Source: Bacteroidota bacterium
GTDB lineage: Bacteria; Bacteroidota; Bacteroidia; J057
Length of the DNA stretch: 32,049 bases
Assembly (NCBI GenBank): GCA_038520955.1
Contig: JBCBKZ010000001.1
Coordinates: forward strand, 1 to 32,049
Direction: 5' to 3'
Position numbers and translations under genes: made by a program. The notes under the pieces are model-generated. The model was not told the origin of the DNA. It ran no database searches and saw only the letters and a program-made list of their open reading frames with translations. Positions within the stretch are counted from its first letter, which is position 1. Every line of letters begins with the position of its first letter. Positions 2,744 through 20,231 of this stretch are shown here, one piece after another.

Positions 2744-3223
2744 TTAAAACAGTCCATTGTTGTTAGCCTTTTTCCCGCCAGCCAGCAACGCAAATAACTT
2801 CATAGAACCATCTATAGGCTGAAGGGCATCCCAGTGCTCCACAATCTGACCATCCACAACTCTCCATATATCCACGATATTGAGCCCTTTATCAGGGTTT
2901 CCGAGATGCGCTTTTTTGATGGTAGCGTGAGAATGAAAAGTTACAAAATCTCCATCAGCGTAAATATGTTTCACATCATATGAGAATTCCGGGAATTTTT
3001 TGGCAAAGCCTTCCATGTAGGTGAGTATTCCTTCCATTCGGTCAGGAATACTTCGGTTATGTTGGACATAATCACTATGCCCATAGGTATTCCGGACATA
3101 GGTAAAATCGTGATCATTCATCAGGTTTTGGACAAAGTCCGTAATCAAGGCAACATTCTTAACCTCCTGCTCTGACCAATTACTTTTGGTTAATGTATTG
3201 GATGGAATGGTGAGTGTACTCAT
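2744..3223 (-). CDS. SnoaL-like / NTF2-fold protein (predicted ester cyclase family)
   Basis: 159 aa. Size and pattern (YxxxxYxQHN ... DGDxVxxH ... DIxRVxDGxIVEHWD) are typical of SnoaL-like cyclase-fold proteins. It is divergently paired with an HxlR regulator. Confidence 0.75.
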   Translation of the reverse strand: MSTLTIPSNTLTKSNWSEQEVKNVALITDFVQNLMNDHDFTYVRNTYGHSDYVQHNRSIPDRMEGILTYMEGFAKKFPEFSYDVKHIYADGDFVTFHSHATIKKAHLGNPDKGLNIVDIWRVVDGQIVEHWDALQPIDGSMKLFALLAGGKKANNNGLF

Positions 3224-3341: not shown

Positions 3342-3746
3342 ATGAAAAAAATTAATATGCGTTCGGATTGTCCGGTGAGTTACGCCCTGGATTTCTTTGG
3401 GGACAAGTGGACATTCCTGGTGATTAGGGACCTCATCTTTGAAGACAAAAGGTTTTTCAAGGACTTCCTGAAGTCCAAGGAGAAAATCGCCAGCAACATT
3501 CTCTCAGACCGACTAAAACGCTTGGAAAGTATAGGCGTCATAGAATCCAAAGTGTTTGAACAGCTCAAAACCCAGAAGGAATATTCTCTCACCCAAAAGG
3601 GAAAGGACCTGGTCCCCGTTTTGATAGAAATGATGCTTTGGTCAGCTAAGCACCATGACGGCCTGGCCCTCACCCCAGAATTCATCCATAAAGCCACCAC
3701 AGATCGGGAGACAGTCATAGCTAACATCATGGCACGCTTAGGCTGA
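3342..3746 (+). CDS. HxlR-family winged-helix transcriptional regulator
   Basis: 134 aa. The CPVxxALDxxGDKWTxLVIRDL start and LSDRLKxLExxGVI recognition region are typical of the HxlR/DUF24 family. Confidence 0.88.
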   Translation: MKKINMRSDCPVSYALDFFGDKWTFLVIRDLIFEDKRFFKDFLKSKEKIASNILSDRLKRLESIGVIESKVFEQLKTQKEYSLTQKGKDLVPVLIEMMLWSAKHHDGLALTPEFIHKATTDRETVIANIMARLG

Positions 3747-3760
3747 TCCCATCTATTCAA

Positions 3761-4351
3761 AGTAGTGGCGAAAAATATTTCGCCTTAGCTTCTATATGGC
3801 CAGAAAGGAATCCCATTTACAGGGGATGTTGCCAGTGTGAAGAGGCTAACCAAGGCATACCTTGTCCCAACCCACTCCAAAAAATAAGCCCATAGGGTTG
3901 TCATCTTCGTAGATAAAAAGCTGCTATCAGATAGCCCGGTACGGGCGGCATATTTAGGTTCCGCCTCTATGAGGCTTGATTATTACATCTGTATATCTAC
4001 AAATGTCTCGCTCCTATGGAGCTGTGTATTCTATTCTGTAAATGTGGATTTAGAAGGAACGGTGTAGAGACGCGATGCATCGCGCCTCTACCTAGCATGC
4101 ATAAATCCGTTTTCGGCTATGCAGTAGCCAAACCTAGCTCATGCCCTGATTTATCATGTATAGCATCTTGTGAATGGCAGGCGGAAGATTTTCCGCCTCT
4201 ACATAACATACATAGAACGTATAAAATCGTTTCCGGCTCTGTAGGAGCCCAAACACACTAGCCCGTCAGGGCATCATATAGCATGGCTCCATAGGAGCCA
4301 AACCTATAGCTGGCTTAGGATGCCTTTTGCAGAAGGTCGATTGTATCGACC
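3761..4351. repeat. Multi-hairpin intergenic repeat module, copy B, plus additional hairpin array
   Basis: 3761-4091 is collinear with 2441-2725. Shared blocks include ccttgtc-caacccactcc, aataagcccataggg, agcccggtacgggcg, cgcctctatgaggcttgatta, ctacaaat-tctcgctcct and gatgcatc. It ends in a 28-bp near-perfect palindrome, gtagagacgcgatgcatcgcgcctctac (4064-4091). 4092-4351 adds more hairpins: ggctatgcagtagcc, ggcggaagattttccgcc (4180-4197), ggctctgtaggagcc, ggctccataggagcc, ggtcgattgtatcgacc (4335-4351). Confidence 0.75.
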
Positions 4352-4470
4352 GTCGAGAGACATACCGCAACCATCCCCAAAATTATATCCAAAAACGGAT
4401 GTTACCTTCTGCCAAAAATATTCATTAACTTGGTAGAAAGCTCCCTAACGTACTTTCTGGAATTACCAAT

Positions 4471-5451
4471 ATGTCTGAAAACGCTTCCGCCCAATCCTCA
4501 AATGGGCTTAACTACATTATAGACCCTGATCTTAAATCTGCTGTAGAAGTAGCGCTGGATTTAGGAATGCCTTTGCTGGTTACTGGAGAACCAGGTACAG
4601 GTAAAACCAAGCTAGCTCGCTATGTAGCAGAAGAAATGCTGGGCACCGACCTGCTTGAGTTTAATACCAAAACTACTTCCAAGGCCAAAGATCTGTTATA
4701 TCGCTATGATGCCTTATCTCACTTTAGAGATACCCAAATAGAAAAGGTAAAGCGCAATCCCATGGAGTACGTAGAGTTTGCTGCTATGGGAAAAGGGATC
4801 ATTGAATCTCCGAGCAAACGCTATGTGGTTTTGGTAGATGAGATTGACAAAGCGCCCAGAGACTTTCCTAATGATGTGCTGTTTGAATTTGATGAGATGG
4901 CCTTTAAGGTGGATGAAGCCAGTATGGAGAATCTAAAAGACTGGCACAGTAAGCATGCAGAATATAAGGAACTGGAAATAGACAAGCAGGGATTCTTCAG
5001 GACTAGTACGGAGATAGCTAAACGGCCTGTACTAATCCTCACCTCTAATTCTGAGAAAAACCTACCGGACGCATTCCTGAGGAGATGTGTCTATTACCAC
5101 ATTAGTTTCCCTCAACCAGAGAAGCTTAAAGAAATCGTACAAGCGAATGTAGACACCAGCGAATCCTTCACAGCGCATATGCTGGGAGCAGCAGTAAAAC
5201 ACTTTTACCAGATTCGTTCTCACAAACTGAAGAAACTACCTGCTACAGCAGAACTCCTTTCATGGATTAAGGTGCTTAAGAAGGCCAATATAGATATCAC
5301 CAAAGCCATGGATGGGGAGGATGATATATTTACCCACTTAAAGAGAGCTAATGTCATCCTCTTCAAAAATAAGGAAGACCTGGAGTGGGCAGATAAAAAC
5401 CTTCAGAAACTTATCACAGATACCATTTCATCTTTAGAGGCAGAATCCTAA
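4471..5451 (+). CDS. MoxR-like AAA+ ATPase (AAA_5-type)
   Basis: 326 aa. Walker A GEPGTGKT (nt 4585-4608), Walker B VVLVDEID (D123/E124 at 4837-4842), sensor-1-like LILTSN and an arginine-rich DAFLRRC segment. It is a single AAA+ module with an insert between Walker B and sensor 1, as in the MoxR/helix-2-insert clade. A 9-nt gap separates it from the next gene. Confidence 0.85.
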   Translation: MSENASAQSSNGLNYIIDPDLKSAVEVALDLGMPLLVTGEPGTGKTKLARYVAEEMLGTDLLEFNTKTTSKAKDLLYRYDALSHFRDTQIEKVKRNPMEYVEFAAMGKGIIESPSKRYVVLVDEIDKAPRDFPNDVLFEFDEMAFKVDEASMENLKDWHSKHAEYKELEIDKQGFFRTSTEIAKRPVLILTSNSEKNLPDAFLRRCVYYHISFPQPEKLKEIVQANVDTSESFTAHMLGAAVKHFYQIRSHKLKKLPATAELLSWIKVLKKANIDITKAMDGEDDIFTHLKRANVILFKNKEDLEWADKNLQKLITDTISSLEAES

Positions 5452-5460
5452 GCTTCTCAT

Positions 5461-7035
5461 ATGCCGAGCCAATACACAGAATTTTTACCCGCTGCTGTGC
5501 TTGCTTTTTCTAATGGAGAAAAGGAAGATGGAACCTATTTGGAGGTGTTGGATGACGAACGAGATGCTATTGGTCGCATCTTTAGGAATTCCAAGCTGAT
5601 CATACGCGAACAGATAGACCGACCTTTAGTGGCAGATATTGCCAGGGCTTTTGATAAGTACCATAGGTATGCGTGTATCTTCCATTATTCGGGTCATGCA
5701 TTTGGGGAAGGCCTCAGCCTGAAAGATGTGGAAGGGAAGGAACGTACAGCCTTTGTGAGTGGAACAGCCAGTCTGGTTAATTTCTACAAGAAGGTGAAAC
5801 TCGTCTTTCTAAATGGCTGCTCTACCCGTAAACAAATCAATTTCTTTCAGGATACGGCTAATCCTCCTGTAGTAATAGCTACCACTCGGCCAGTAAGAGA
5901 TGAAGTAGCTGCCTACTTCTCAGAAGCATTTTATGAAGCCTTTGTCAGTCAGGGACTAAGTGTGCAAGTTTCCTATGAGAAAGCCAAGGGACTACTGGAA
6001 GCCAACTTTGGTGATCCTAAACAGATATATAGGACCCTGATATTTGATAAAAAATCGCTCGAAGAAGACGCTTTTGATCCCTACATCATAGAAAGTAAGG
6101 ATAAAACGCTCTTGCATAAAACCCTCAAGGATTGGAAAGAGGAAATAGGGAGAATGGGAGGGAGCCAATCTCAGGAGATAGCCGAGGACGCCTACCTAAG
6201 CTGTAATCGTTACACCCAATGTCAGGACTTTAAAGAAGCCCTGGAAGAATTGCTGGATACTGAGAAAGCCTATCCTTTGGGCGTCTTCATTCAGGGGCCA
6301 TCAGAGGAAAGAGGCCACAAGCTGATAGAACGCTTTGTATCTCACGAAATTCCAGGCCTGTTAAGTACCCACCCTTCTACTTCGGGAGTGGAGGCAGTAT
6401 GGTTTGAGATAGACTTTCCTAAGGCGGTGGACTTTGAGCGGGAAAGAGAGAAGGGTAAAAGAGCCAGCAGAAAGCCCTTTCAGGGTCCTATGAAGGTGCT
6501 GATGGATAATCTCCGAAAAGAGACGGGCTGTTTTGACGCCACGGACTTATTAGAAGCCCAGGGAAGCCAGAGCCTGATCTGCCTGGAGCATAGGATACAG
6601 TTGCAGAATTGGGAGGCAGACATGAAGGGGTTTATCCAACATTATCTGCAGGAAGTTTGGGCCAATGTGCTTGAGGGTAATTCTCCTGGACTGATCGTAT
6701 TCTTCAATCTCACTTATCTAAAATCTGAAAAAGGCCTTGGGAAATTCCTGCCTATCTTTTCCTCAGAGCATAAAAAAGTGGAAAAGGCTTTCCAGCAAAT
6801 TCAGGAGCAACTATCAGATTCCACCGTAATCCTGGAAAAACTACAAGCGGTCCCTGCAGGAGAAATAGATGACTGGATCTCAGATAAGCTAAGAGATGAA
6901 CCTACCCTTTTTCAGGACAGGTTTAGCAAGCAGAAAAGCTGGAGCATGGCCAAGATCGAGAAAATTCTCACGGAAGTAATCAAAGGGATAAGGCAGCGAG
7001 CCCTCCAGCAGGAGAAAGCTACGGTTCCTGTCTAG
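5461..7035 (+). CDS. Caspase-like (CHAT-type) protease domain fused to a degenerate P-loop/STAND-like module
   Basis: 524 aa. The N-terminal ~200 aa show the CHAT/caspase pattern IFHYSGHA (His79, nt 5695-5697) ... VKLVFLNGCST (Cys120, nt 5818-5820) ... VVIATTRPVRDEVAAYFSEAFY. The C-terminal half has a strand-loop-helix, GVFIQGPSEERGHKLIERFV, where a Walker A would sit but without GK[ST]. A 3-nt gap separates it from the next gene. Confidence 0.65.
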   Translation: MPSQYTEFLPAAVLAFSNGEKEDGTYLEVLDDERDAIGRIFRNSKLIIREQIDRPLVADIARAFDKYHRYACIFHYSGHAFGEGLSLKDVEGKERTAFVSGTASLVNFYKKVKLVFLNGCSTRKQINFFQDTANPPVVIATTRPVRDEVAAYFSEAFYEAFVSQGLSVQVSYEKAKGLLEANFGDPKQIYRTLIFDKKSLEEDAFDPYIIESKDKTLLHKTLKDWKEEIGRMGGSQSQEIAEDAYLSCNRYTQCQDFKEALEELLDTEKAYPLGVFIQGPSEERGHKLIERFVSHEIPGLLSTHPSTSGVEAVWFEIDFPKAVDFEREREKGKRASRKPFQGPMKVLMDNLRKETGCFDATDLLEAQGSQSLICLEHRIQLQNWEADMKGFIQHYLQEVWANVLEGNSPGLIVFFNLTYLKSEKGLGKFLPIFSSEHKKVEKAFQQIQEQLSDSTVILEKLQAVPAGEIDDWISDKLRDEPTLFQDRFSKQKSWSMAKIEKILTEVIKGIRQRALQQEKATVPV

Positions 7036-7038
7036 GCT

Positions 7039-10000
7039 ATGGCAGCAAAGCGTAACATAGACATCCTCTTCTTTGAAGAATTGTTGGAAGAACTCTCCTT
7101 CACAAAAGGAGTGGACACCTATGTACGCATACATAAGCTCCTGGAAAATTGGCAGCCTACAGATGATGCTGAAGAAGACCTAAAAAGACTAAGGGTAAAG
7201 TTGGGGAGTTTACTAGCCAATTCTCCTGAAGAACAACAAGCCTTTTACCAGCGTTTTGACGGCTATGCTTCCCGCTATGCCTATGTCCAGGCTCAGGAAG
7301 CTCCCCCACCACTCCCTACAACTTCTCCTATGTGGAGATGGCTATTTAGCCTGGTGGTGATCAGCCTCATACTGGCAGGTGTATGGCTACTGATTACAGA
7401 TTCTAAGGATACTTTTGTGGAGAGAGGGCTAGCTTTTGATAGCGCAGAACTTTCAAAAACTGTTTGGTTCCAGAATCTGGCAGTTCCTTTTTCCAAAGAA
7501 CCTATCCTCTCCAATAGGATGACAAAGTATACGTGGGACTTTGGAGATGGCTCCCCGGCAGTAGAAACTACGGAAGCTATTATCTCTCATACCTATGAGA
7601 AGCGAGATGCTTATTTTGTGACCGTCATAGCGGAGAGTGTCTATGGAAAGGATACCACCACCAGAAGAGTTCGTGCAGGCTTAGGGGGAGTAATGCTTTC
7701 TAGTCAACAAGATCAGCAAAATCCTTTGGATTGGCAGATGGAGCTCAGTAAAGAGCGTTTCCGTGAAATCAATTCAATGGGTGAGGGGGTAAGTGCTCAA
7801 AAGATTCTCGAAGGAATAGCAGCCGAAGAGCAGAAGCTAAATGAGCAGAGCCGTTACCTAATTGATGGGTTGATTTTGTTTGGAGATGGGGTGCAAGAGC
7901 GCTTTTATCTAGAAGATACAGCTGAAAGAGTCCTGTTCTCCCATAACTATGAGCTTCCTGGTAGGTATGAAGTAGATGTCTATTATTCTTACTATAAGAT
8001 AGATAAAACAACTGGAGTTAGTGAGGAGATATTGCAGGATACTGCCCTTACTACCATACTCATAGAAGGGGATTACTCTTATGAGCCGGTAGGGTTACCT
8101 GAGATTTCTTTTGAAGAAATTAATATTGAAGGCCTACTGAAAGAACAGCAAACAGACTGGCGTCCTGAGCTACTGTTTGCCATAGCATTTTTATTATATG
8201 CTTTTTATGAATGGTGGAAATGGAAAAGTAGGAAGCCGGTATTGGATACCAGCAATGACCTGCATGATCCTGACTGGCAACCCTTACAACTAGACAGGCC
8301 CCAAGTCAACCTCTTTCGTTCAGAGCCCTTCGAGAAGTGGGCGTTAAGCCTTAGGAGGCAAAAGCATACAGAACGGGAAGAATTAGACCTGAATGCTACC
8401 CTAAAAGATACTTTGGAAAAAGGCGGTTTTCCTTCTCTGCTTTTTAAGCCCGGTCAGCAAACCTCTCAATACCTCTTTCTGATAGAATGTTATGGCATTC
8501 ATGACCAGCAAGCTGCTTACTATAGAGAATTGGTAGCAGAACTGGAGCAGCGAGACATTAGTACAGAGGTCTGGTTTTATCATCCTGCCAGGAAGAAACT
8601 GGCTTTTTATAGAGATCCTCAGAAACCAGGAGAAAATACAAGTGCAGATGGACTCAGTAGACTATATGGAAACTACCGACTGGTCATCATAGGAGATGGA
8701 AAAAACTGGGAGAGAGAGGTAGCCAGACTGGAAAGTGTGAAAGACTGGCTGGAAAAGACCTGGATATCTACGCGTCCTCCTGCTCACTGGGACAGAAGAG
8801 AAATAGAACTGGCTAAACACTTTCTCCTCTTTCCGGCTCAGGAAGAAGCCTTTCTTTCTATGGTAGATGTATGGTCAGATGTCCAGGAAGCAAAAGACCT
8901 GGCCATATGGAGAGAGCAGGACAGAACTTATGATCTTCCTGATCTGGAAGACATAGATTCCCTTCCCTTGCTAAAGAGATATTTGGGAAAAGACGCCTTT
9001 CACTGCCTCTGTGCTGCTGCCATTTATCCGGAAATGTATTGGGAACTCTGCCTTGCCTATGCCAATATGTGCGGATTGGTGGAAGGCGGGAGAGTGAAAC
9101 AAGATTTTCTGAAGTTGTTAAATCTTCCCTGGTTTAGAGAAGGCCGGATTCCGGAAGAGTGGAAGGTCCTCCTGATGGAGGAGATCCCTTCGCCTTTACA
9201 GGAAGAGGTGTACAGCTACCTGATTTCAGTCCTGGAACAGCCACAGAATACGGCTGCTAGTCAGCCCGGTGCTCAAAAGCAAAACCGAGCCCTTCTGGCT
9301 GTCTATAAGTACCATGTAGAGAAAGATAAAGATAAAGCGGCCCAAGAACTTAGCGAGACCATCATAGGAGAGGTTTCTCCGGAATACCTTCGAGACATAG
9401 TCTCTGTAAGGACGGTTTCTAAGGTAGGTCGTAAAGATCAACTCATCCCTCTCCCGGGAAGCTTTTATCATTACGGCATTCCTCTTTATGGAGAAAGAGA
9501 TTGGCTAAGATTATTGAAGGTGTTACTGGTCTTACTCCTTCTGCTGGCAGGACGTTTTGGGTTCAGGATACTGAATCCCCTTCAGGTAGAATACGCAGAG
9601 CCTTATCAGGAAGAATATGTACAGCTAACTTCTGCTAATGACTCCGCTAAGTGGATGATGTATCAAGGGAATCAGATGTGGCAGGAAATGATGGATCCAG
9701 ATCCTTATGATGGGGTATATACTGATCCTATAGACTATGAGGCCATAGCCCCTTACTATAAGAAGGCTGTAGAACTGGATCCCGAACTTGGGAGCGCCAT
9801 GAGAAATCTGGTGTTAACTCGCTACCATCAGGCACGGGCAGGATATCTGAATCAGGACCTACAGGCGGCGCTTTCAGCCTTTGGGAATCATGCTGATAGT
9901 ATGGAAATCTCTATTCCTGAATCCTTGGTGAACGAAGTAAGGTTCCTCATGGGCTTGATATGGCTGGAGAATCCTGATCCTGAGGTGATGGGGTTTACAA

Positions 10001-11802
10001 TTCCTGAGGTAGAAACTGGGGAAGGATATTTAAGTTGGCGACTGATAGACAATAGAGAGTATAATTTTGAGGTGAGTGATTCATTGCCTTTCCCTACTGT
10101 TATCCGGCCAAGCTCAACTATCAGGGGCGAGCCAAGCTACAGCATCAATCAGTCCCTTTTATCAACCCTCTCTCTCTACAGCTTGGGTAGAAACTTTTAT
10201 CAGACTGACAGCAGCTTGTTTGGGAGCTTAGCGCTAGAAGATAAGGTCTTGTTTAATAACAAGCGTGAGGCCAATCTCAGAGGACAGTTAGGGGAGAATG
10301 AGTTCCTACTAGACTCATTGGACAACTGGATATATGGCCTGGAAAATAGAGAATCGACCTTACTGGCAGAAGCAGAACGTTTAAGGGCCGAAGGTAGTTG
10401 TGATGAGGCCGTAGGCTTGTACCAGCAGGTACTGATATTAGATCCTGCCAATGTTCAGGCACAAAAGGGACTTGATGCTTGCCAGCCAACAAACAAGCCA
10501 CCTGTTTCCATTGACCTACTGCTTAAGCAAGCTACGCTACTAGCCCGAAAAGGAAATTGTGATTCTGCCTTAGTACTTTATAACCTGGTACTGGCAAAAG
10601 ACGCTAGAAATGCGCTGGCCAAAAAAGGCATACGGAACTGCGAGAGGTCTACCTCGTCAAAAGAAACAAAAACCATTTACCTCAAGGGCTATCTGGGCTG
10701 GGAGATAGAGTCTCGCATACCCGCCATGGGAGCCAATGTATCCGTAGCTGTGGCTGCTAACCCGAATCCTGATATTTCCATAGGTAGGGAAGAAAGAGAA
10801 AGTGGACCCGTAGACCTGCTTGTAGGTAAAACAAATAATCAGGGACGCTTTAGCATTCCCCTTAGGCTCAGCCATGAGAAAGGAAAAAACTATGCTTCAC
10901 ATGAACTGATAGACAATCTGAGCATTACCATTTCTGGCAGAAACCTCCAGCAGCAGCGCTTGGAAATACCTTATGCGGATATAGCCTATAGCGTAAACCT
11001 CAGCCTGAAAGGAGATACCATTTTACTGGATACCGTCCGCATGCGTATTCAAGCAGACGTAGGGGAGTTTGTAGAAGTAGAAGGAGGAACCTTTATGATG
11101 GGAAGTGAGGAAGGTAATGAGAATGAAAAACCTGTTCATGAAGTTACGCTCTCATCATATAGCATACAGAAATATGAAGTTACAGTAGCTCAGTATATGT
11201 ACTATGTGCAGGAAGGGAGGGGATTACTACCCGAATGGTTAATGAAAGATGAACAGGATTATTTATTCAATCCTAAAAATAATGAAGTCTACAAGAGAAT
11301 AGGTAAAAGTCTTTACTCACTGAACTATCCTATCGTGGGTGTGAATCGTACGGATGCTAGGGCTTATGCAACTTGGTGGTCCAATATCAATAAACGAAAA
11401 TATATGCTTCCTACAGAAGCTCAGTGGGAATTTGCCGCGAGAGGAGGAAAAGGTTCTCAAGGTTACATCTATGCAGGTAGTAATCAACAAGATAAAGTAG
11501 GGTGGCATCGTAATAATTCTGGTTTTCAGACTCACCCTGTTGGTCAGAAAAAACCTAATGAACTTGGGCTATATGATATGTCTGGGAATGTATATGAATG
11601 GTGCGAAGATGATTGGCATGACAGTTATTCTGATGCTCCTATTGATGGTTCTGTATGGATAAATCCTTTGAGGAATACGGTTGGAGTGGCTCGTGGGGGA
11701 TCATGGTATAGCTCTGTTAGTTTCAACCGAGTGGCTTATCGAAATGATCTTCCTGTTTCAGCGGATCACGATTATGTCGGTTTTCGCCTATTAACAGATT
11801 AG
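7039..11802 (+). CDS. Giant (1587 aa) three-pass membrane protein: N-terminal helical domain, 2 PKD-like domains, vWA-like domain, TPR-like repeats, beta-sandwich, C-terminal FGE-sulfatase (SUMF1/EgtB/PvdO-type) domain
   Basis: Hydrophobic segments at aa 99-120, 376-396 and 822-843. PKD signature WDFGDG...HTY (W166 at nt 7534), with a second degenerate copy (LFGDG...SHNYELPGRYEVDVY). vWA-like strand-helix pattern YLFLIECYG...VWFYH...RLVIIGDG. TPR-like helices (AVGLYQQVLILDPANVQAQKGL, ALVLYNLVLAKDARNALAKKG). CarboxypepD_reg-like GKTNNQGRFSI. FGE-sulfatase motifs GGTFMMGS, KPVHEVTLSSYSIQKYEVT, LPTEAQWEFAARGG, GLYDMSGNVYEWCEDDW, RGGSW, GFRL. Confidence 0.75.
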   Translation: MAAKRNIDILFFEELLEELSFTKGVDTYVRIHKLLENWQPTDDAEEDLKRLRVKLGSLLANSPEEQQAFYQRFDGYASRYAYVQAQEAPPPLPTTSPMWRWLFSLVVISLILAGVWLLITDSKDTFVERGLAFDSAELSKTVWFQNLAVPFSKEPILSNRMTKYTWDFGDGSPAVETTEAIISHTYEKRDAYFVTVIAESVYGKDTTTRRVRAGLGGVMLSSQQDQQNPLDWQMELSKERFREINSMGEGVSAQKILEGIAAEEQKLNEQSRYLIDGLILFGDGVQERFYLEDTAERVLFSHNYELPGRYEVDVYYSYYKIDKTTGVSEEILQDTALTTILIEGDYSYEPVGLPEISFEEINIEGLLKEQQTDWRPELLFAIAFLLYAFYEWWKWKSRKPVLDTSNDLHDPDWQPLQLDRPQVNLFRSEPFEKWALSLRRQKHTEREELDLNATLKDTLEKGGFPSLLFKPGQQTSQYLFLIECYGIHDQQAAYYRELVAELEQRDISTEVWFYHPARKKLAFYRDPQKPGENTSADGLSRLYGNYRLVIIGDGKNWEREVARLESVKDWLEKTWISTRPPAHWDRREIELAKHFLLFPAQEEAFLSMVDVWSDVQEAKDLAIWREQDRTYDLPDLEDIDSLPLLKRYLGKDAFHCLCAAAIYPEMYWELCLAYANMCGLVEGGRVKQDFLKLLNLPWFREGRIPEEWKVLLMEEIPSPLQEEVYSYLISVLEQPQNTAASQPGAQKQNRALLAVYKYHVEKDKDKAAQELSETIIGEVSPEYLRDIVSVRTVSKVGRKDQLIPLPGSFYHYGIPLYGERDWLRLLKVLLVLLLLLAGRFGFRILNPLQVEYAEPYQEEYVQLTSANDSAKWMMYQGNQMWQEMMDPDPYDGVYTDPIDYEAIAPYYKKAVELDPELGSAMRNLVLTRYHQARAGYLNQDLQAALSAFGNHADSMEISIPESLVNEVRFLMGLIWLENPDPEVMGFTIPEVETGEGYLSWRLIDNREYNFEVSDSLPFPTVIRPSSTIRGEPSYSINQSLLSTLSLYSLGRNFYQTDSSLFGSLALEDKVLFNNKREANLRGQLGENEFLLDSLDNWIYGLENRESTLLAEAERLRAEGSCDEAVGLYQQVLILDPANVQAQKGLDACQPTNKPPVSIDLLLKQATLLARKGNCDSALVLYNLVLAKDARNALAKKGIRNCERSTSSKETKTIYLKGYLGWEIESRIPAMGANVSVAVAANPNPDISIGREERESGPVDLLVGKTNNQGRFSIPLRLSHEKGKNYASHELIDNLSITISGRNLQQQRLEIPYADIAYSVNLSLKGDTILLDTVRMRIQADVGEFVEVEGGTFMMGSEEGNENEKPVHEVTLSSYSIQKYEVTVAQYMYYVQEGRGLLPEWLMKDEQDYLFNPKNNEVYKRIGKSLYSLNYPIVGVNRTDARAYATWWSNINKRKYMLPTEAQWEFAARGGKGSQGYIYAGSNQQDKVGWHRNNSGFQTHPVGQKKPNELGLYDMSGNVYEWCEDDWHDSYSDAPIDGSVWINPLRNTVGVARGGSWYSSVSFNRVAYRNDLPVSADHDYVGFRLLTD

Positions 11803-11909
11803 TCTTAAAAGTCATAAGTATGTAAAAAATTGAAGATTATATAGAATATTCATCTTAAGATGATCTGGCAAAGCAGCAATTGAATTAATGTTACGCGTTT
11901 CAAGCATGT

Positions 11910-12125
11910 GAAGTCGATGTAATCGACTTCAGGCAAATATATAGTTGTAGAGGCGCGATGATTGATTTTGAAAAAATAAGCGGCCCACTGTAGGGGCGGA
12001 TTTATCCGCCCTTTGAAGCATACGGCAGCTTAAGCAGCCGGTCCATTTTCGACTTTGAGCCCACCATTTGAATGGTGGGAAACAAGGGACGCTTAAATAG
12101 TCAAACCTAATCATCGCGCCTCTAC
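11910..12125. repeat. Hairpin repeat cluster including a 179-bp element bounded by perfect 17-bp terminal inverted repeats (MITE-like)
   Basis: gtagaggcgcgatgatt (11947-11963) is the exact reverse complement of aatcatcgcgcctctac (12109-12125). The interior holds hairpins gggcggat-tt-atccgccc and cccaccatt-tg-aatggtggg. An upstream hairpin is gaagtcgat-gta-atcgacttc (11910-11930). The arms are the same sequence as the palindromes at 4064-4091 and 2699-2724. Confidence 0.75.
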
Positions 12126-13155: not shown

Positions 13156-13884
13156 ATGCCGCATAGACAGAAGCATAGAGGGCAGCAGTCAGAGGACCCC
13201 AAGCTATTTAGCTTGGATTGGCTACCTGTACTCAATGAAGCGGTAACGGACATGTCTTACCTCATGTCCCGAGGCTATTCTCATAGATCTTCTTTAAAAA
13301 TAGTAGGTGATAGATACAAGCTCCATAGAAGACAGCGTCATGCCCTCTACAGGGCCAGTTGTTCTGATCAGTCTCGTACACAGCGGGCTGGGAAATTGAT
13401 GGACGTCTCAGAGCTGAAAAACAAGCAGGTCATCATAGATGGCTATAATTTGCTGATCTCAGTAGAGAGCGCCCTCTCAGGCGGCATCATCATAGACTGT
13501 AGGGATGACACTTTTCGGGATTTGGCGAGTGTTCATTCTACCTACCGTACGGTAGCAGAAACGAGACCTGCCATCAACCTCATAGGAGAGCAATTGGAGT
13601 CCCTATGCATAGCGGGCGCTTACTGGCTCTTGGATGCACCCATCTCTAATAGCGGAAGGCTGAAGCACCTCATGGAAGGCATAGCAGAAGAAAAAGGCTT
13701 TCATTGGCAGATAGAATTAGATAATAGTCCAGATAAACGTATCAAAGAGGAGAAAGAATCCGTAGCTATTACTTCAGACGGGCAGATTTTGGATCATGTA
13801 GATACCTGGACTAATTTGCACCGTCATATCATTGAAGGATTGTCTGAGTCTCAGATCATTCAGTTGAAAGGGATAGGGCAGTAG
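13156..13884 (+). CDS. DUF434-like N-terminal domain fused to a NYN/PIN-like (YacP-type) predicted ribonuclease domain
   Basis: 242 aa. N-terminus is HRGxxxxDxxLF...RGYSxxSSLKIVGDRYxLxxRQRxAL (recalled DUF434 pattern). The C-terminal half starts VIIDGYNLL, like the IDGYN motif of YacP/NYN nucleases. Confidence 0.55.
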   Translation: MPHRQKHRGQQSEDPKLFSLDWLPVLNEAVTDMSYLMSRGYSHRSSLKIVGDRYKLHRRQRHALYRASCSDQSRTQRAGKLMDVSELKNKQVIIDGYNLLISVESALSGGIIIDCRDDTFRDLASVHSTYRTVAETRPAINLIGEQLESLCIAGAYWLLDAPISNSGRLKHLMEGIAEEKGFHWQIELDNSPDKRIKEEKESVAITSDGQILDHVDTWTNLHRHIIEGLSESQIIQLKGIGQ

Positions 13885-14084: not shown

Positions 14085-14558
14085 ATGCAAAAATATACCT
14101 GGTTTTTCTCTCTTAAAGAGGCTCTCACAACAGAAGCCGAAGCCAAACTGGCACAAACCTTTGAGGCATTTCTGGCTCAGTGGAAATCTCATGGCACACC
14201 CGTAAACGGAAACATAGAGATTAAGTACAGCCGTTTTGTGATTGTGCAGGCTGATCCTAATGATGACAGACCTTCTGGTTGTTCTATAGATAATCTGAAA
14301 CGTACTGTTGAAGAGATCCTCCAGCATTTCTCACTGGAAACAGTGGACCATGCCTATGTGTGGTACAGAGACCAGGAGCAGACTATTCAGTCTACCCACT
14401 TCAGTAAGCTAGCTAAGCTGGTAGAATCAGGAGACTTACAGGCAGATACGCCTATATTTGATCATACCCTTTCTAACTCGGATGATTTGTCTAAGTGGGA
14501 AGTAAGCTTGCAGGATAGCTGGCTTAAGCGCTTTTTGAAAACTTCTCCGGCTTCCTAG
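14085..14558 (+). CDS. Conserved hypothetical protein (157 aa)
   Basis: Intact ORF with plausible composition. It ends 4 nt inside the convergent HD gene. I cannot assign a motif with confidence. Confidence 0.6.
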   Translation: MQKYTWFFSLKEALTTEAEAKLAQTFEAFLAQWKSHGTPVNGNIEIKYSRFVIVQADPNDDRPSGCSIDNLKRTVEEILQHFSLETVDHAYVWYRDQEQTIQSTHFSKLAKLVESGDLQADTPIFDHTLSNSDDLSKWEVSLQDSWLKRFLKTSPAS

Positions 14559-15130
14559 CTCTGTAGGTATAGCTCATTTTGAATGGTGGGCACCATAAAG
14601 TGGAGGAAATGCTCTATCATCTGGAGGGTACTTTCCTTATTCACACATTTTCTGCCTCTCACATCGCATAAGGAAAAAATGCCTAGCAGCCTCAGGTCTA
14701 CTCGTGTGGCCAAAGCTTTATATCCATCCACAGACTGCTTCTTCAGTCCCCAACGTAGGGGAATGTGATGCCAGCGGATCAGGTCTAGTATGACTTTTTT
14801 CTGGCTGGGTAGGATATCTTTCTTTTCTCTGAGGATTTCTCTGGCAATGTTAACACCCGCCATTTCATGCCCGGGAGAACGCCATCTGCCATTTTCCCAT
14901 TTGGTAACTACAGGTTTCCCTATGTCATGTAGGACGGCTGTCCAGTAAAGGATGGTTCTTTCTTCTTCTGTGAGAAAATTCTGTTCAGCATAGGCAAGTA
15001 CTTCAGAAACTACCAAGCAGGTATGTTCATACACATTTCCCTCAGCGTGAAAACGAGGGTTTTGTTCTGTTTCCTTCAAGCGTTGGATATATACAGCAGG
15101 TAGGGGTAGGTTCTGAACTACTGAAACCAT
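14555..15130 (-). CDS. HD-domain phosphohydrolase
   Basis: 191 aa. H...HDIGKP metal-binding signature (LHDIGKPV) plus a downstream histidine (RWHHIPL). Confidence 0.8.
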   Translation of the reverse strand: MVSVVQNLPLPAVYIQRLKETEQNPRFHAEGNVYEHTCLVVSEVLAYAEQNFLTEEERTILYWTAVLHDIGKPVVTKWENGRWRSPGHEMAGVNIAREILREKKDILPSQKKVILDLIRWHHIPLRWGLKKQSVDGYKALATRVDLRLLGIFSLCDVRGRKCVNKESTLQMIEHFLHFMVPTIQNELYLQS

Positions 15131-15563: not shown

Positions 15564-17789
15564 TTACTTCTTGGGAGGTTCCTTCTTTTTGAGGGGAGGC
15601 TCTTTTAGTTCTTCCAGTAGATCCATATCCGCATTGGGGTCCTCCATATCCGCTTCTTCCAGTTCATCATCAAAGAAGAGTTCTTCCTGTGTAGGATTAA
15701 GAATTTCTCCCTCTATCTGCTTATTGAGGATAAGCTTAAATTCTACTCGTCTATTTTTCTCCTTATTGGGCTTGGTATCATTAGGAACTACAGGCTTAGT
15801 ATCCCCAAAACCTTGGGCTGATACCCTGCTCTCATCAAAGCTCCCTGCACCGGTTATGTAGTTGGCTATGATTTCCGCCCGCTGTTGGGAAAGCGTCATA
15901 TTATATCTGGGGTCTCCGTCAGAATCCGTATGCCCTTCCACCACCAGATCAAACTGGGGATACAGTTCCAGGAAGCGGACTAGATAGTCTAGCTTGGGTT
16001 TAATACTCCGTTTCAGCTTGTAGCTGTTAGAACTGAACTTTAGCGACTCAAATACAATGGGCTTATTGCTTCTATTGAAATTCTCCGTGAGAATATTAAA
16101 AGTGGTATCTGATACCAGCTCTATGTCTTTCTTGATGGTGAGAAAACTGTTCCCAAAAATGTAGACCTGGTACTTTCTGTCTTTAATGAGGTCAAATTCA
16201 AAGTAGCCTTCCTCATTGATCATCTTGGGCGCTATCTCCACATTTTCTTCCAGGTCTATAATCATCACGGTACCTGTCAGTGCATTCCCACTTACTGAGT
16301 CTACCAGGAAGCCTTTGAGGACAGTATTGGCGTCCGGCCTTGCGCCCATGGGCATAGGGAAGGCATATAGGTCAAAGTCTTGCTCCAGGTGATTGTCTTC
16401 CTGCCCTTCTGATCTGGCGTAGTAGATGAAGTCAGCCTTTCCATCAATGGAGAAATAGTAGTCGTTTCCTCTGGTATTCACCAAGGGGCCCACATTTCTG
16501 GGAGATTCCCAGCCGTCTCCTATCCATCTGGCTCTGAAAATATCAAAACCTCCCAGGGACTGAATCTGTCCACTGGAACTGAAGTAGAGGGTATTCTCTA
16601 TTCTATGGAAGAAGGGTGTTACTTCATCCTGAGAAGTATTGACCATAGGACCCAGGTTTCTGGCCGCCGACCAGTTCCCCTCCCCATCCATTTCAGACAC
16701 ATAAATATCAGTGCTGCCATATCCTCCCGCTCTGTTAGAAGCAAAGTAGAGGTACTTGCCATCTTCTGAGATATTAGGGTGAGAATCCCAGTAGGAAGTA
16801 TTTATGCCTGCCCCTAGATTATGGACATCATCCCAGCTGTCATCAGTAGGATCATAGGTGGCCTGATAAATATCACAGTCCCCAAATCCGGTTTCCTCAT
16901 CATTACATCTGGTAAAGTAGAGAGTCAAACCATTAGGAGATAAGCAGGCTGAACCTTCATTGAAGGAGCTATTAATGTTATCTGGCAGTTTTTCCGCTAA
17001 CACCCATTCTCCATCCATAAAATCTCTGTAAGAATAGTACAGGTTTTCGTCTGTCTTTGAGAAAGGATCCATGATGTCTTCTTTCTCCCTTCTGGAGGTA
17101 AAGAAGAGCACACTATCATGTGGATGCATGAAGGGCGCATAATCAGGAAAAGGATTAGCGTTTACCGTAGGGCCTAAGGAAACGAGTACGTTCTGCGGCT
17201 TGAGGACCGTATCTATATTCCTCCTGACTTTCAGTAATTCATAATACTTATCTATGGGCAGCCATTCAGTGTGGGTGGGTGCCATGAGGGAGTCATATGC
17301 TAGTTTGGGAGCAGCCATTCCTCTCCCATGTTTATGTGCTAATTCATAGAAGAATAAAGCACTGGCGGTATCTCCTTGTATTTGTCTAAGGCGACCCATT
17401 TTCCATAGGGTGCGATAATTTCTTTTGAAGTTCTCTGTCCCAAAATTATTAATGAAGGAGGAAAGGAGGTTATCCATCTCAGCCATGCTGGTGGCTATTT
17501 TGGCGGAATCCTGATCAGCTTGTGCCTGAAGAAGTCTCTTCTCAGTCTGGATGATGGTTTTCAGCAGCTTCTTATCCTGAAAGAAGGGCTTGCTTTCAAT
17601 CCCACTAATACGAGTAGCCTCAGTACCCATACTGATATTTTCAGTAGAGTCTGGGGATAATATGGCTACAGATTTCTGTGTAAGAATTTTGGGTGTTTGA
17701 TCAGAAGTATTGTCCTGACCAAAAGAGAGAATGTAGCTCAATAAAAAAGTACAAAGTAAAACACCCGGCAAATGGATATATTCTTTCAT
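15564..17789 (-). CDS. OmpA-family envelope protein with TolB-like (PD40) beta-propeller repeats
   Basis: 741 aa. Signal peptide, then repeated motifs (PxxSxDGxxLYFxS, YFASNR, LYFSSS) typical of WD40-like/PD40 blades. C-terminal OmpA domain VEGHTDSDGDPxYNMTLSQQRAEII...NRRVEF, followed by an acidic/lysine-rich tail. Confidence 0.88.
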   Translation of the reverse strand: MKEYIHLPGVLLCTFLLSYILSFGQDNTSDQTPKILTQKSVAILSPDSTENISMGTEATRISGIESKPFFQDKKLLKTIIQTEKRLLQAQADQDSAKIATSMAEMDNLLSSFINNFGTENFKRNYRTLWKMGRLRQIQGDTASALFFYELAHKHGRGMAAPKLAYDSLMAPTHTEWLPIDKYYELLKVRRNIDTVLKPQNVLVSLGPTVNANPFPDYAPFMHPHDSVLFFTSRREKEDIMDPFSKTDENLYYSYRDFMDGEWVLAEKLPDNINSSFNEGSACLSPNGLTLYFTRCNDEETGFGDCDIYQATYDPTDDSWDDVHNLGAGINTSYWDSHPNISEDGKYLYFASNRAGGYGSTDIYVSEMDGEGNWSAARNLGPMVNTSQDEVTPFFHRIENTLYFSSSGQIQSLGGFDIFRARWIGDGWESPRNVGPLVNTRGNDYYFSIDGKADFIYYARSEGQEDNHLEQDFDLYAFPMPMGARPDANTVLKGFLVDSVSGNALTGTVMIIDLEENVEIAPKMINEEGYFEFDLIKDRKYQVYIFGNSFLTIKKDIELVSDTTFNILTENFNRSNKPIVFESLKFSSNSYKLKRSIKPKLDYLVRFLELYPQFDLVVEGHTDSDGDPRYNMTLSQQRAEIIANYITGAGSFDESRVSAQGFGDTKPVVPNDTKPNKEKNRRVEFKLILNKQIEGEILNPTQEELFFDDELEEADMEDPNADMDLLEELKEPPLKKKEPPKK

Positions 17790-18440: not shown

Positions 18441-20231
18441 TCAATTATCAGAGGGTCTAATCATTCTCAAGTTGTTGAGATAAATGTGCTGGGGCGTTTC
18501 AAACATCTCATAATTATTGAAGCGCTGATGTACAGCCCCTTTACGGGTAGGATTAAAGAGAGGGATGATAGGAAGCTCATCTACCAGTATATCCTGAATC
18601 CTGTAGGCCAGCCTCTGTCTTAGCTGAGGATCTATGGCTACTTCAGCACTATCTATGAGCGCATCCACTTCAGTGTTGCTGTATCCGGCATAATTACCCC
18701 CGTTAGATTTTCGGCTTTTTGAGTGCCAATTCTGCTCAAAAGGATAGGGTGTAGGAAAGGGCGTCAACGCCAAAAGGATGGCATCAAAGTCCTGAGACTG
18801 AAGTTTCTGGATTAACTGAGGCATTTGGAGTCCATCTGCTTCACAGCCTATTCCTACTTTTCTCATTTCCTCCGCAAATGCTTCTATGATTTTGTCATTA
18901 TTAGCACTGGCAGGGTAGGATATGGCAAAGCTGAGAGAAACGCGCTCTCCTTCTATTTCTTTGTCCAGAAGCTGATCATTATCTGTGTCAGCCCAGCCAT
19001 CTTCCTGCAGAATCTTGCTGGTTAGATTCGGGTCGAAAGGAATCGGTTCCAGATTGACGTTAAAGTCTGGATGAGACTTGGGGACAGGCGAAAGACTTCG
19101 TGAACTGGAATTGTTGAAGAGGGTTTCCAACACCATGTCTATGGGGAGTACATGACTCACCGCCTTCCTTACGGCCTTAGAAGTGAATATGGGCAAATGC
19201 TCCTCTCCGTCAGGTCTTAGGTTGAGGATCAGCATCCCCTGGCTAGGTCTGTTGACCATCATCAGGTGAAAGTTATTTTGTATACTTTCGCTCTCCTTCA
19301 AATTATTATAGGACGTACTGGAAAGGCTGGTAGTTACATCTATCTTCTCCTGCTTAAGTTCCAGTTCCACAGAAGCCAGATCTCTGTTGATGCGGAAAAT
19401 AATCTTATCCGGATACTGACTGTGGAAAGGGTGATTGAGGTTCTTTCCCCAGTAATTGTCTTTTCTCTTGAGAATGATCTGCTGGTCAGGATACCATTTC
19501 TCTAATTCATAGGGTCCTGAGCCACCAGTAATGAGTTTTTCCTCCCTGCCATATTTCTCATCATAGAATTCAGAAGCCCATGCTTGTAAGTCTTCCTGCT
19601 CAGCTACATCACTTTTACTATCAAGAAAGTCAGTGAGTTCATACTTATCCAGCACTTTCTCCGGATCAAAGACACGTTGGTCAAGAATAAAAGCCAAATC
19701 CCCATAATGAGCATTGATCACATAAGGCTTATTCATGATGAAAGAAACCTTTCTGTCATTCTCAGGATCCAGTTCTATTCCTTTTAGGTAAGCCAGGTAA
19801 GGGTCTTGAGGGGAGGGGGGAGCTATAGGACAGATAAGGACTTTATAAGAGAATAGTACATCTGCAGCGGTAATAGGAGTTCCATCTTCCCATGCAGCAT
19901 CCGGATGTACTTCAAATGTGTAGACTAGTCCGTCTTCTGAAACTTCTGGCAAGCTTTTAGCCAGAGAAGGAGCCAGTTTACCGCTTTCCAGGTCTACGCG
20001 GGTGAGCGTATTATGGATAAGCCGCATGATGGTAGAATAAAAAGCAGTTCTCCCGTATACAGGATGAAGACCTTCGGGTTCAGCCATAAAATGCACCACT
20101 ACTTCGTTAGATTTTTCTCCCGTATAATAAACCAGTGGTTTTTCTTCTTTGCCGGAGGTAGCTGATTCATTCTTGCAGGAGATGAGTAGAGATGTACAGA
20201 TGAGAATGAAACAGAGAAGGGATTTATGCAT
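18441..20231 (-). CDS. ABC transporter substrate-binding lipoprotein, family 5 (peptide/nickel, OppA/DppA-like)
   Basis: 596 aa. Lipobox-like LLISC signal. Length and motifs (W.DG.P.TA.DV.FS, GPY.L..W) are typical of SBP_bac_5. No cognate permease genes lie adjacent. Confidence 0.85.
   Translation of the reverse strand: MHKSLLCFILICTSLLISCKNESATSGKEEKPLVYYTGEKSNEVVVHFMAEPEGLHPVYGRTAFYSTIMRLIHNTLTRVDLESGKLAPSLAKSLPEVSEDGLVYTFEVHPDAAWEDGTPITAADVLFSYKVLICPIAPPSPQDPYLAYLKGIELDPENDRKVSFIMNKPYVINAHYGDLAFILDQRVFDPEKVLDKYELTDFLDSKSDVAEQEDLQAWASEFYDEKYGREEKLITGGSGPYELEKWYPDQQIILKRKDNYWGKNLNHPFHSQYPDKIIFRINRDLASVELELKQEKIDVTTSLSSTSYNNLKESESIQNNFHLMMVNRPSQGMLILNLRPDGEEHLPIFTSKAVRKAVSHVLPIDMVLETLFNNSSSRSLSPVPKSHPDFNVNLEPIPFDPNLTSKILQEDGWADTDNDQLLDKEIEGERVSLSFAISYPASANNDKIIEAFAEEMRKVGIGCEADGLQMPQLIQKLQSQDFDAILLALTPFPTPYPFEQNWHSKSRKSNGGNYAGYSNTEVDALIDSAEVAIDPQLRQRLAYRIQDILVDELPIIPLFNPTRKGAVHQRFNNYEMFETPQHIYLNNLRMIRPSDN

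Follow-up and report, generated by a model that had tools for sequence, protein, structure and literature searches.

The 32,049-nt stretch of DNA analysed here (the window; contig JBCBKZ010000001.1 of GenBank assembly GCA_038520955.1, positions 1 to 32,049 of the forward strand, from a Bacteroidota bacterium) carries three closely packed open reading frames (ORFs) on the plus strand. Their products are a MoxR-class AAA+ ATPase (ORF1), a predicted caspase-like peptidase fused to an inactive STAND (iSTAND) module (ORF2), and a large, putatively membrane-spanning protein that ends in an FGE-sulfatase (FGS) domain (ORF3). The trio belongs to a predicted class of conflict or threat-response systems, the iSTAND type of MoxR-vWA "ternary" systems, defined by comparative genomics as subsystem 2 (Kaur et al., 2020), and it is a typical member that carries the commonest tail domain of the class.

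The Three-Gene Array and Its Products

The three ORFs lie at 4471-5451 (326 aa), 5461-7035 (524 aa), and 7039-11802 (1587 aa), separated by gaps of 9 nt (5452-5460) and 3 nt (7036-7038), which bears out the tight same-strand array claimed in a preliminary description of this DNA. To judge from this spacing and from conserved synteny, the trio is probably read as one transcript. Terminator-like matches inside the operon were at chance level (10 found, 7.5 expected), and a sigma-70 promoter scan was uninformative, at or below chance, the sigma-70 model being unsuited to Bacteroidota promoters. A copy of the trio that is 97-98% identical is present on a 5.4-kb contig of another Bacteroidota metagenome-assembled genome (MAG; GCA_039030495.1, referred to as L096). 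Between the two copies, the ratio of non-synonymous to synonymous substitution rates (dN/dS) is 0.07 for ORF1, 0.06 for ORF2, and 0.07 for the first 620 codons of ORF3, and all three are therefore taken to be real, functional genes under purifying selection. The features of the locus, assigned from Pfam, hydropathy, AlphaFold2 (AF2) models, and Foldseek, are as follows.

4375-4470, plus strand: upstream leader and candidate promoter region, near-identical in L096
4471-5451, plus strand: ORF1, MoxR-class (NorQ/CbbQ-like) AAA+ ATPase, 326 aa (Pfam, AF2, Foldseek)
5461-6060, plus strand: ORF2, predicted N-terminal CHAT/caspase-like peptidase domain (homologues with Pfam CHAT, PF12770; His-Cys conserved)
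6196-6708, plus strand: ORF2, iSTAND module, residues 246-416 (Pfam PF19995, E 1.1e-8, 36 bits against 24)
7039-7323, plus strand: ORF3, N-terminal conserved helical domain, predicted cytoplasmic (family-wide conservation)
7342-7398, plus strand: ORF3, transmembrane segment 1, residues 102-120 (Kyte-Doolittle 2.63)
7456-8160, plus strand: ORF3, predicted extracytoplasmic loop with PKD at residues 140-211 and a second PKD-like beta domain at about 270-345
8167-8217, plus strand: ORF3, transmembrane segment 2, residues about 377-393, followed by WKWKSRK (Kyte-Doolittle)
8362-8874, plus strand: ORF3, alpha/beta (Rossmann-like) domain, residues about 442-612, probable divergent CoxE/NorD-type vWA (AF2, Foldseek)
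8899-9426, plus strand: ORF3, all-helical linker domain, residues about 621-796, named "vWA-L" in earlier papers (AF2 model helices)
9505-9576, plus strand: ORF3, transmembrane segment 3, residues 823-846 (Kyte-Doolittle 1.97; long helix at the C-terminus of the model)
10360-10473, plus strand: ORF3, TPR-like repeat or repeats, residues 1108-1145, predicted periplasmic (sub-threshold Pfam)
11062-11793, plus strand: ORF3, C-terminal FGS domain (C-type-lectin fold), residues 1342-1585, predicted periplasmic and non-catalytic (Pfam PF03781, E 5e-53)

ORF1 is a MoxR-class ATPase of the NorQ/CbbQ type with intact Walker motifs. Walker A reads GEPGTGKT with K45 (nt 4582-4608) and Walker B reads VVLVDE with D123/E124 (nt 4825-4842), and arginines are conserved at positions 204 and 205. 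The Pfam matches are generic (AAA and AAA_5), with none to AAA_3 at E<=0.01. There are at least 7,994 homologues, which carry the name MoxR family ATPase at NCBI and JGI and share 46-65% identity among the 120 listed. The AF2 model, built with 45 homologues, is of high quality (predicted local distance difference test, pLDDT, 93; predicted TM-score, pTM, 0.88), and its Foldseek search returns NorQ chains at the top (E 3e-11 to 1e-9, TM-score 0.73-0.79), then CbbQ, then dynein AAA modules, which upholds the MoxR-type assignment made earlier. A family profile of 28 members placed Midasin AAA modules first in the Protein Data Bank (PDB; 7e-14). At the sequence level, phmmer searches of ORF1, ORF2, and the ORF3 core against PDB gave P-loop-level matches or none, and an hhalign comparison of the ORF1 family profile with a single E. 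coli RavA sequence was uninformative (prob 17), such a single-sequence template being too weak. The ORF1 profile found only P-loop-level matches in IMG/VR and no relative there, and so no evidence of a phage-borne system.

The N-terminal 200 residues of ORF2 align with proteins that carry Pfam CHAT (PF12770), at E up to 1.5e-16; the direct CHAT match of ORF2 itself lies below the cut-off (E 0.0015, 18.4 bits against 24). Among 30 aligned sequences, N118-G119-C120 does not vary and G78-H79-A80 hardly does, His79 being part of YSGHA (nt 5695-5697) and Cys120 of LNGCST (nt 5818-5820). The homologue matches and this conservation sustain the CHAT/caspase His-Cys dyad proposed in the preliminary description, and every catalytic residue named there (K45 and D123/E124 of ORF1, H79 and C120 of ORF2) is present. 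The apparently inactive P-loop module reported for the same protein proves to be Pfam iSTAND: its P-loop position reads GPSEERGHKL, is equally degenerate in orthologues, and the protein runs on past the module to nt 7035. Neither ORF1 nor ORF2 has a hydrophobic segment, and both are predicted to be cytoplasmic.

ORF3 begins with about 90 residues that are conserved family-wide (L35, L51, Q66, F69, and F73 are invariant in 7 sequences). Pfam assigns no family to the N-terminal 92-100 residues, which may correspond to the CoxE-type 4-helix domain described for the class (PMC7159879). The loop that follows matches Pfam PKD at E 1.9e-11, and a scan of this loop by itself yields two stretches of PKD_4; PKD and FGS, both claimed earlier, are thus secure Pfam assignments. 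A three-pass membrane protein had also been proposed, and three hydrophobic segments are indeed found, the middle one scoring under the 1.6 Kyte-Doolittle threshold; at least two such segments stand ahead of the core, at matching relative positions, in 52 of 65 homologues. The TPR repeats of that proposal rest on Pfam matches below the cut-off (TPR_11, E 5.8e-5, 23.1 bits against 26.8, and TPR_14) and are kept as tentative. ORF3 would sit in the inner membrane with its N-terminus inside, the PKD loop outside, the core inside, and the tail from TPR to FGS outside, because the positive cluster WKWKSRK after segment 2 puts what follows in the cytoplasm by the positive-inside rule, PKD and FGS domains are typically extracytoplasmic, and the protein needs to meet two cytoplasmic partners.

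The FGS domain resembles several enzyme families at scores far below the NCBIfam equivalog cut-offs (PvdO, 124.8 against 500; GldK, 91 against 350; EgtB, 65 against 360; SenA, likewise far under), and readings of it as an FGE enzyme or as GldJ/K fail on these scores. The catalytic cysteines of FGE sit after the RGGS motif, and no cysteine follows the RGGSW motif of ORF3. Given the low scores and the missing cysteine, the domain is therefore read as a non-catalytic binding module of C-type-lectin fold.

Between the second and third hydrophobic segments lies the core (residues 395-850), which defines a family of 2,423 representative clusters (50% identity) at E<=1e-3 and 1,448 at E<=1e-10, with member lengths of 400 to 2,039 aa. 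Its AF2 model, from 45 sequences (pLDDT 88.4, pTM 0.83), consists of an alpha/beta domain, an all-helical domain, and a terminal long helix. The helical linker (model helices H227-H402) is modelled at high confidence, and WLCACAVYPE and LPWFR are conserved within it. With YLFLIE taken as strand 1, the succession of strands and helices is compatible with a vWA fold. That strand ends at an acidic position, D or E in 43 of the 45 sequences (E483 in ORF3), and D553 lies at the end of putative strand 4, in agreement with the "two aspartates" by which Kaur et al. recognise the domain. When 23 core-only sequences were searched against Pfam at a permissive threshold, the family matched most often was VWA_CoxE (5/23, all sub-threshold, best E 0.0047). 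On these grounds, the core is probably a vWA domain. Several results count against that assignment. Pfam finds no vWA on ORF3 itself; Foldseek gives no match at E<=1e-3, reaching NorD (9qhf_G, 9qhe_G) only at E 1e-2 (prob 0.96, TM-score 0.36-0.37), with HGPRT-like Rossmann folds close to it (TM-score ~0.30) and one HGPRT chain tying at prob 0.96; and a profile of the alpha/beta domain has no match in PDB. The family profile also retrieved nothing from a single E. coli ViaA sequence (hhalign, prob 0.3), a result that counts neither way because a single-sequence template is too weak. In addition, ORF3 carries E483 and G486 in place of the D and S of most family members, which may alter metal-dependent peptide binding. 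Support for the vWA-like domain of the preliminary description is weak, and it comes from the NorD resemblance (E 1e-2, TM-score 0.36) and the sub-threshold VWA_CoxE matches.

Recurrence of the Trio

A scan of one genome per species provided 80 loci with an ORF1-like gene (L009-L088), which were searched with purpose-built hidden Markov models (HMMs). An ORF3-core gene adjoins the ATPase gene in 60 of the 65 loci that have at least 3 kb of downstream sequence, and the core gene and iSTAND are both present in 39 of 52 loci with room on both sides. The preliminary description had made its proposal depend on co-occurrence of the three genes beyond this genome; they co-occur widely, and so the proposal holds on this point. 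Two gene orders predominate and track two ATPase subfamilies. The order of the window (AAA, CHAT-iSTAND, vWA) is found in 12 loci, whose ATPase HMM E-values range from 1e-105 to 1e-144 with one outlier at 5e-91, and the order X-iSTAND, AAA, vWA is found in 46 loci, mostly without CHAT. Among window-type loci, the ATPases are 50-60% identical and ORF2 and ORF3 24-32%.

FGS is the commonest C-terminal tail of the core protein (22 of 50), followed by WG repeats (8), CarboxypepD_reg (7), and WD40 (6); tails also swap to OmpA and TIR, and the N-terminus of the iSTAND protein swaps between CHAT and EAD11. This divergence of ORF2 and ORF3, together with the swapping at their ends, is the kind of modularity that conflict systems typically show. 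The genomic context of the trio differs in every locus examined, and its carriers are mostly Saprospiraceae, Lewinellaceae, and other Bacteroidota, with further examples in Pyrinomonadaceae, Desulfobacterales, Nostoc, Polyangia, and Flexithrix. The range of arrangements is illustrated by the following loci.

L001: EAD11-iSTAND / AAA / PKD...OmpA
L002: CHAT-iSTAND / ...WD40
L004: EAD11-iSTAND / AAA / PKD-TPR-FGS
L005: AAA / CHAT-iSTAND / core / separate FGS gene
L006: AAA / iSTAND / PKD-CarboxypepD_reg-FGS
L007: AAA / CHAT-iSTAND / PPR-EAD11-TIR

In L002 and L003 (Bacteroidia MAG GCA_033764335.1), the CHAT-iSTAND gene adjoins a gene for a 1455-aa vWA-core/WD40 protein, with no MoxR-like ATPase gene within 8 kb of the pair; an ATPase gene may lie elsewhere, or this variant may do without one.

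Diversity-Generating Retroelements in Relatives

Six relatives of the locus (L005, L006, L010, L065, L074, and L077) carry the template repeat (TR) and variable repeat (VR) pairs of diversity-generating retroelements (DGRs) at the 3' end of the FGS-coding sequence, the last 60-135 nt of which have an imperfect copy 0.6-2 kb downstream. The coordinates of each pair are given below (VR against TR), with the share of mismatches that fall at template adenines, which is 86-100% overall.

L005: 7087-7147 against 7691-7751 (12/12)
L006: 15076-15193 against 16693-16810 (19/22)
L010: 16314-16445 against 18515-18643 (19/21)
L065: 9838-9972 against 11701-11835 (19/20)
L074: 7689-7815 against 9387-9513 (20/20)
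L077: 15346-15468 against 16017-16139 (19/20)

A reverse transcriptase (RT) gene adjoins the repeat pair in L006, and bAvd does so in L005; L010 falls in the window's own gene-order subclade. By their sequence pattern, the pairs are classic DGR template and variable repeats, and the adenine-specific mismatches at the 3' end of FGS are the reason that the tail is treated as a variable ligand-binding surface.

Relation to Known Systems

The iSTAND class, as delineated from comparative genomics (Kaur et al., 2020, eLife; PMC7159879), combines a MoxR ATPase without special extensions with a vWA protein that has a CoxE-like 4-helical N-terminus, N-terminal transmembrane segments in ~28% of cases, and a variable C-terminus that most often consists of FGS (~22%). 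The iSTAND protein of the class has a caspase-like, trypsin-like, TIR, or EAD domain at its N-terminus, and the systems are found mainly among cyanobacteria, proteobacteria, and bacteroidetes and are enriched in multicellular bacteria (PMC7159879). In 2021 this description was extended to the vWA-L linker and to variants with split genes (PMC8195603), the latter seen here in L005 with its separate FGS gene. The window operon shares with these systems (PF19995) the MoxR ATPase, the caspase-like peptidase N-terminal to iSTAND, and a large partner with helical N-terminus, transmembrane segments, helical linker, and C-terminal FGS, as well as the phylum Bacteroidota. Nothing essential differs; the vWA is very divergent (E483 for the usual Asp, no Pfam vWA match), and a predicted periplasmic, PKD-bearing loop is an insertion that separates the N-terminal helical domain of ORF3 from its vWA core. 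The layout of two transmembrane segments around a loop is the rule in the present sample (52/65 with at least two segments), as against the ~28% with N-terminal transmembrane segments in PMC7159879. The link to the MoxR-vWA ternary systems of the Aravind group, drawn in the preliminary description, was therefore correct and can be made exact as subsystem 2. Its remark that no system of this fused transmembrane architecture had been characterised experimentally agrees with the literature searched, in which no experimental test was found; the architecture itself is less remarkable than it suggested, since transmembrane segments and FGS tails are already listed for the class.

A second point of comparison is provided by the DGR-diversified vWA-CLec proteins of VMAP-type systems (Dore et al., 2024, PNAS; PMC10907252), which likewise place a MoxR-like ATPase beside a vWA protein with C-terminal CLec/FGS and a peptidase partner. 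Some of these DGR targets have transmembrane segments that place the CLec domain in the periplasm, and the vWA-CLec proteins have been proposed as sensors in a sensor-first model (PMC10907252). Relatives of the window operon carry RT or Avd and TR-VR pairs as these systems do; the third component differs, being iSTAND in the window operon and VMAP in the systems of Dore et al., and the window is without RT or TR within its 32 kb.

Experimental precedent for outside-in signalling comes from Esr of Schaalia odontolytica, a MoxR-vWA-beta-propeller pathway that, as a 2026 preprint shows by experiment, is needed to respond to an epibiont outside the cell (bioRxiv 10.64898/2026.09.08.750141). Esr shares the MoxR-vWA pair and variable surface-exposed sensing domains with the window operon but differs in its host (Actinobacteria), its beta-propeller sensors, its kinase/phosphatase/FHA relay, and its Esx secretion output, and it has no iSTAND, caspase, or FGS.

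How an ATPase of this kind acts on a vWA partner has been seen by cryo-electron microscopy for NorQ, which threads the vWA finger of NorD through its pore and remodels the linker (PMC13036017). Among the NorQ-NorD, CbbQ-CbbO, and RavA-ViaA pairs are found the best structural match for ORF1 (NorQ) and one of the highest-probability matches for the ORF3 core (NorD). These pairs differ from the window operon in serving the maturation of one enzyme, in having a canonical metal ion-dependent adhesion site, and in being soluble, with neither a protease partner nor variable ectodomains. Another parallel, with CHAT-protease immune effectors, concerns the control of the peptidase: in the type III-E CRISPR Craspase, the His-Cys peptidase TPR-CHAT/Csx29 is inactive until an upstream sensor complex changes conformation. 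Activation of Craspase is RNA-guided, through gRAMP/Cas7-11, and the partners in the window operon are instead MoxR, vWA, and iSTAND.

Flanking Genes and Repeats

Upstream of the trio lie tRNA-Gln (140-212), prs, rplY (L25), and pth, and downstream a 129-aa ORF without assignment and a cytidylyltransferase-like gene on the minus strand. The preliminary description named a prs-rplY-pth block and an rfaE2-like gene as the housekeeping neighbours; it made no mention of a divergent pair between pth and the trio, formed by a SnoaL-like gene (2744-3223, minus strand) and an HxlR-like gene (3342-3746, plus strand) and followed by a 724-nt repeat-rich intergenic region. The junction from HxlR to the trio is the same in L096, the only close relative, and the GC content of the window is flat; the accessory island proposed in the preliminary description is therefore no more than a possibility. 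Within the intergenic region, 4375-4470 might hold the promoter, to go by its near-identity in L096; the rest is diverged or rearranged between the two. Rfam and tRNA scans of the window returned tRNA-Gln at 140-212 only, leaving the flanking intergenic regions empty.

Repeat clusters are found on both sides of the operon, as had been claimed. Downstream, at 11947-12125, is a 179-nt element resembling a miniature inverted-repeat transposable element (MITE), with inverted repeats of 14 nt, GTAGAGGCGCGATG, at its ends. L096 has this element too, at 378-556 (95% identical, inverted), where it lies upstream of the trio. Two "solo" palindromes in the window (4064-4091 and 2698-2725) consist of the two MITE termini alone, and the motif is present 6 times where chance would give 0.53. 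The element looks recently mobile from its differing position in two near-identical genomes. A 173-nt direct repeat of 82% identity (2482-2654 and 3853-4024) brackets the SnoaL-like/HxlR-like pair, and in L096 the MITE-like element replaces its second copy; this gene pair could be a cassette that arose by insertion or duplication.

An 81-aa ORF at 4016-4261 (plus strand), wholly inside the repeat-rich region upstream of ORF1, is probably spurious. Further downstream neighbours, for which no link to the trio was found, encode an HD-domain protein, a DUF434/DUF5616 protein, and a 741-aa PD40/OmpA protein (TolB-like or peptidoglycan-associated); as a set, their coordinates are 14555-15130 (minus strand), 13156-13884 (plus strand), and 15564-17789 (minus strand).

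A Proposed Mechanism and Its Alternatives

Taken as a whole, the locus is best explained, with fair but far from firm confidence, as an iSTAND-class threat-response system that works from the outside in. ORF3 would serve as membrane receptor and co-chaperone, ORF1 as an ATP-driven gate, and ORF2 as scaffold and executioner protease. The periplasmic FGS and PKD domains would bind a ligand that is non-self or comes from the envelope (part of a phage, for instance, the surface of an epibiont, or debris of the cell wall), and the ligand-induced change would be relayed across the membrane to the vWA/vWA-L module. By analogy with NorQ-NorD, the ORF1 hexamer would grip and remodel this module with ATP, setting an energy-dependent threshold, and this step would license assembly and activation of the iSTAND-CHAT protein. 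The protease could then cut cytoplasmic targets, whether the cytoplasmic linker of ORF3 itself or host proteins, leading to growth arrest or death. In this scheme, the topology, the direction of signalling, the protease targets, and the defensive role are all presumed.

Some observations pull the other way. The direction of signalling is not readable from the sequence, and no experimental study of the iSTAND MoxR-vWA class was found in the literature searched. PADLOC-DB v2 gives no match for ORF2 or ORF3 and matches ORF1 only at P-loop level (IetA, mad8, TRIP13), and the window bears no mark of a defence island, its GC content being flat at 0.43-0.47. There is no RT among the ORFs of the 32 kb, and the 3' end of FGS (nt 11601-11830) has no repeat copy in the window, so this copy is not locally diversified.

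The direction of signalling is the point at which the strongest alternative departs. In the model stated for these systems (Kaur et al.; PMC7159879, PMC8195603), iSTAND senses a cytoplasmic invader, for example through its nucleic acid, the MoxR-vWA pair sets the threshold, and the caspase processes ORF3, which then deploys its periplasmic FGS and PKD domains as a "neutralising" effector that binds incoming invaders. That iSTAND is the constant, non-enzymatic third component fits this inside-out scheme, and FGS is called an effector in that work. Yet the FGS tail is predicted to be outside already and is tethered by a transmembrane segment, and what a cytoplasmic cleavage would release is hard to see; the DGR diversification that the tail undergoes in relatives suits a receptor no less than an effector; and the caspase is the sole obvious enzyme with destructive potential. 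Inside-out working is thus unlikely, if the most credible of the alternatives. Outside-in signalling is favoured over it, as a leaning that falls short of even odds, because a variable lectin-like module is predicted outside, is a DGR target in relatives, and the only destructive enzyme is cytoplasmic. A further step, which is held more loosely still, would see in the outside-in operon a bacterial "death-receptor-like" pathway of periplasmic ectodomains, an ATP-driven MoxR-vWA checkpoint, an inactive-STAND scaffold, and a cytoplasmic caspase-like protease. The lectin-fold domain of the relatives would then be DGR-hypermutated in the manner of an antigen receptor, and the whole would amount to transmembrane, caspase-executing immunity.

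Alternatively, the trio might have no part in defence and act in signalling or development of filamentous Bacteroidota, its lectin-like domains reading self or kin envelope glycans and its caspase running regulated proteolysis or programmed death in filament development. The carriers are mainly filamentous or multicellular (Saprospiraceae, Lewinellaceae, Haliscomenobacter, Flexithrix, Nostoc, Polyangia, Desulfobacterales), in line with the enrichment reported by Kaur et al. (PMC7159879), purifying selection is strong, and beyond the MITEs no mobile-element hallmarks surround the operon. Against this stand the DGR hypermutation and rapid domain swapping of the relatives, which are hallmarks of an arms race and not of self-recognition, as well as a genomic context that differs in every locus, and such a role appears improbable.

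Least credible, and very improbable, is a housekeeping MoxR-vWA chaperone with extra domains, either Bat-like (aerotolerance or envelope, the alternative offered in the preliminary description) or a cofactor-insertion or activase pair akin to NorQD, CbbQO, or CoxDE: ORF1 is structurally closest to NorQ/CbbQ, NorD ranks with the most probable structural matches of the ORF3 core, and FGS is weakly similar to PvdO and GldK, but neither the trio nor its neighbours have AAA_3, DUF58, or a BatA/B-type or Pfam VWA, no client enzyme gene is nearby, the NCBIfam equivalog scores are far below cut-off, the tail varies between species, and a cofactor chaperone has no use for a caspase-iSTAND partner or for the DGR targeting seen in relatives.

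Implications

The family to which the operon belongs is large, with 2,423 clusters for the ORF3 core and at least 7,994 homologues for the ATPase, and the literature searched holds no experimental test of it. The locus offers a compact three-gene example in which the catalytic motifs are all intact, a variable lectin-like domain is predicted outside, and a caspase is predicted inside; its value lies in a clear, testable topology and a set of mutants in an untested class, not in a lack of precedent. For annotation, the locus shows that a recognisable system is concealed in Bacteroidota MAGs behind such labels as "PKD domain-containing protein" and "hypothetical protein." If outside-in signalling is true, such operons would join ligand-binding domains, DGR-diversified in relatives, to an ATP-gated checkpoint and a caspase-like executioner, and they would represent a bacterial counterpart of receptor-triggered cell death as well as a source of programmable binding domains.

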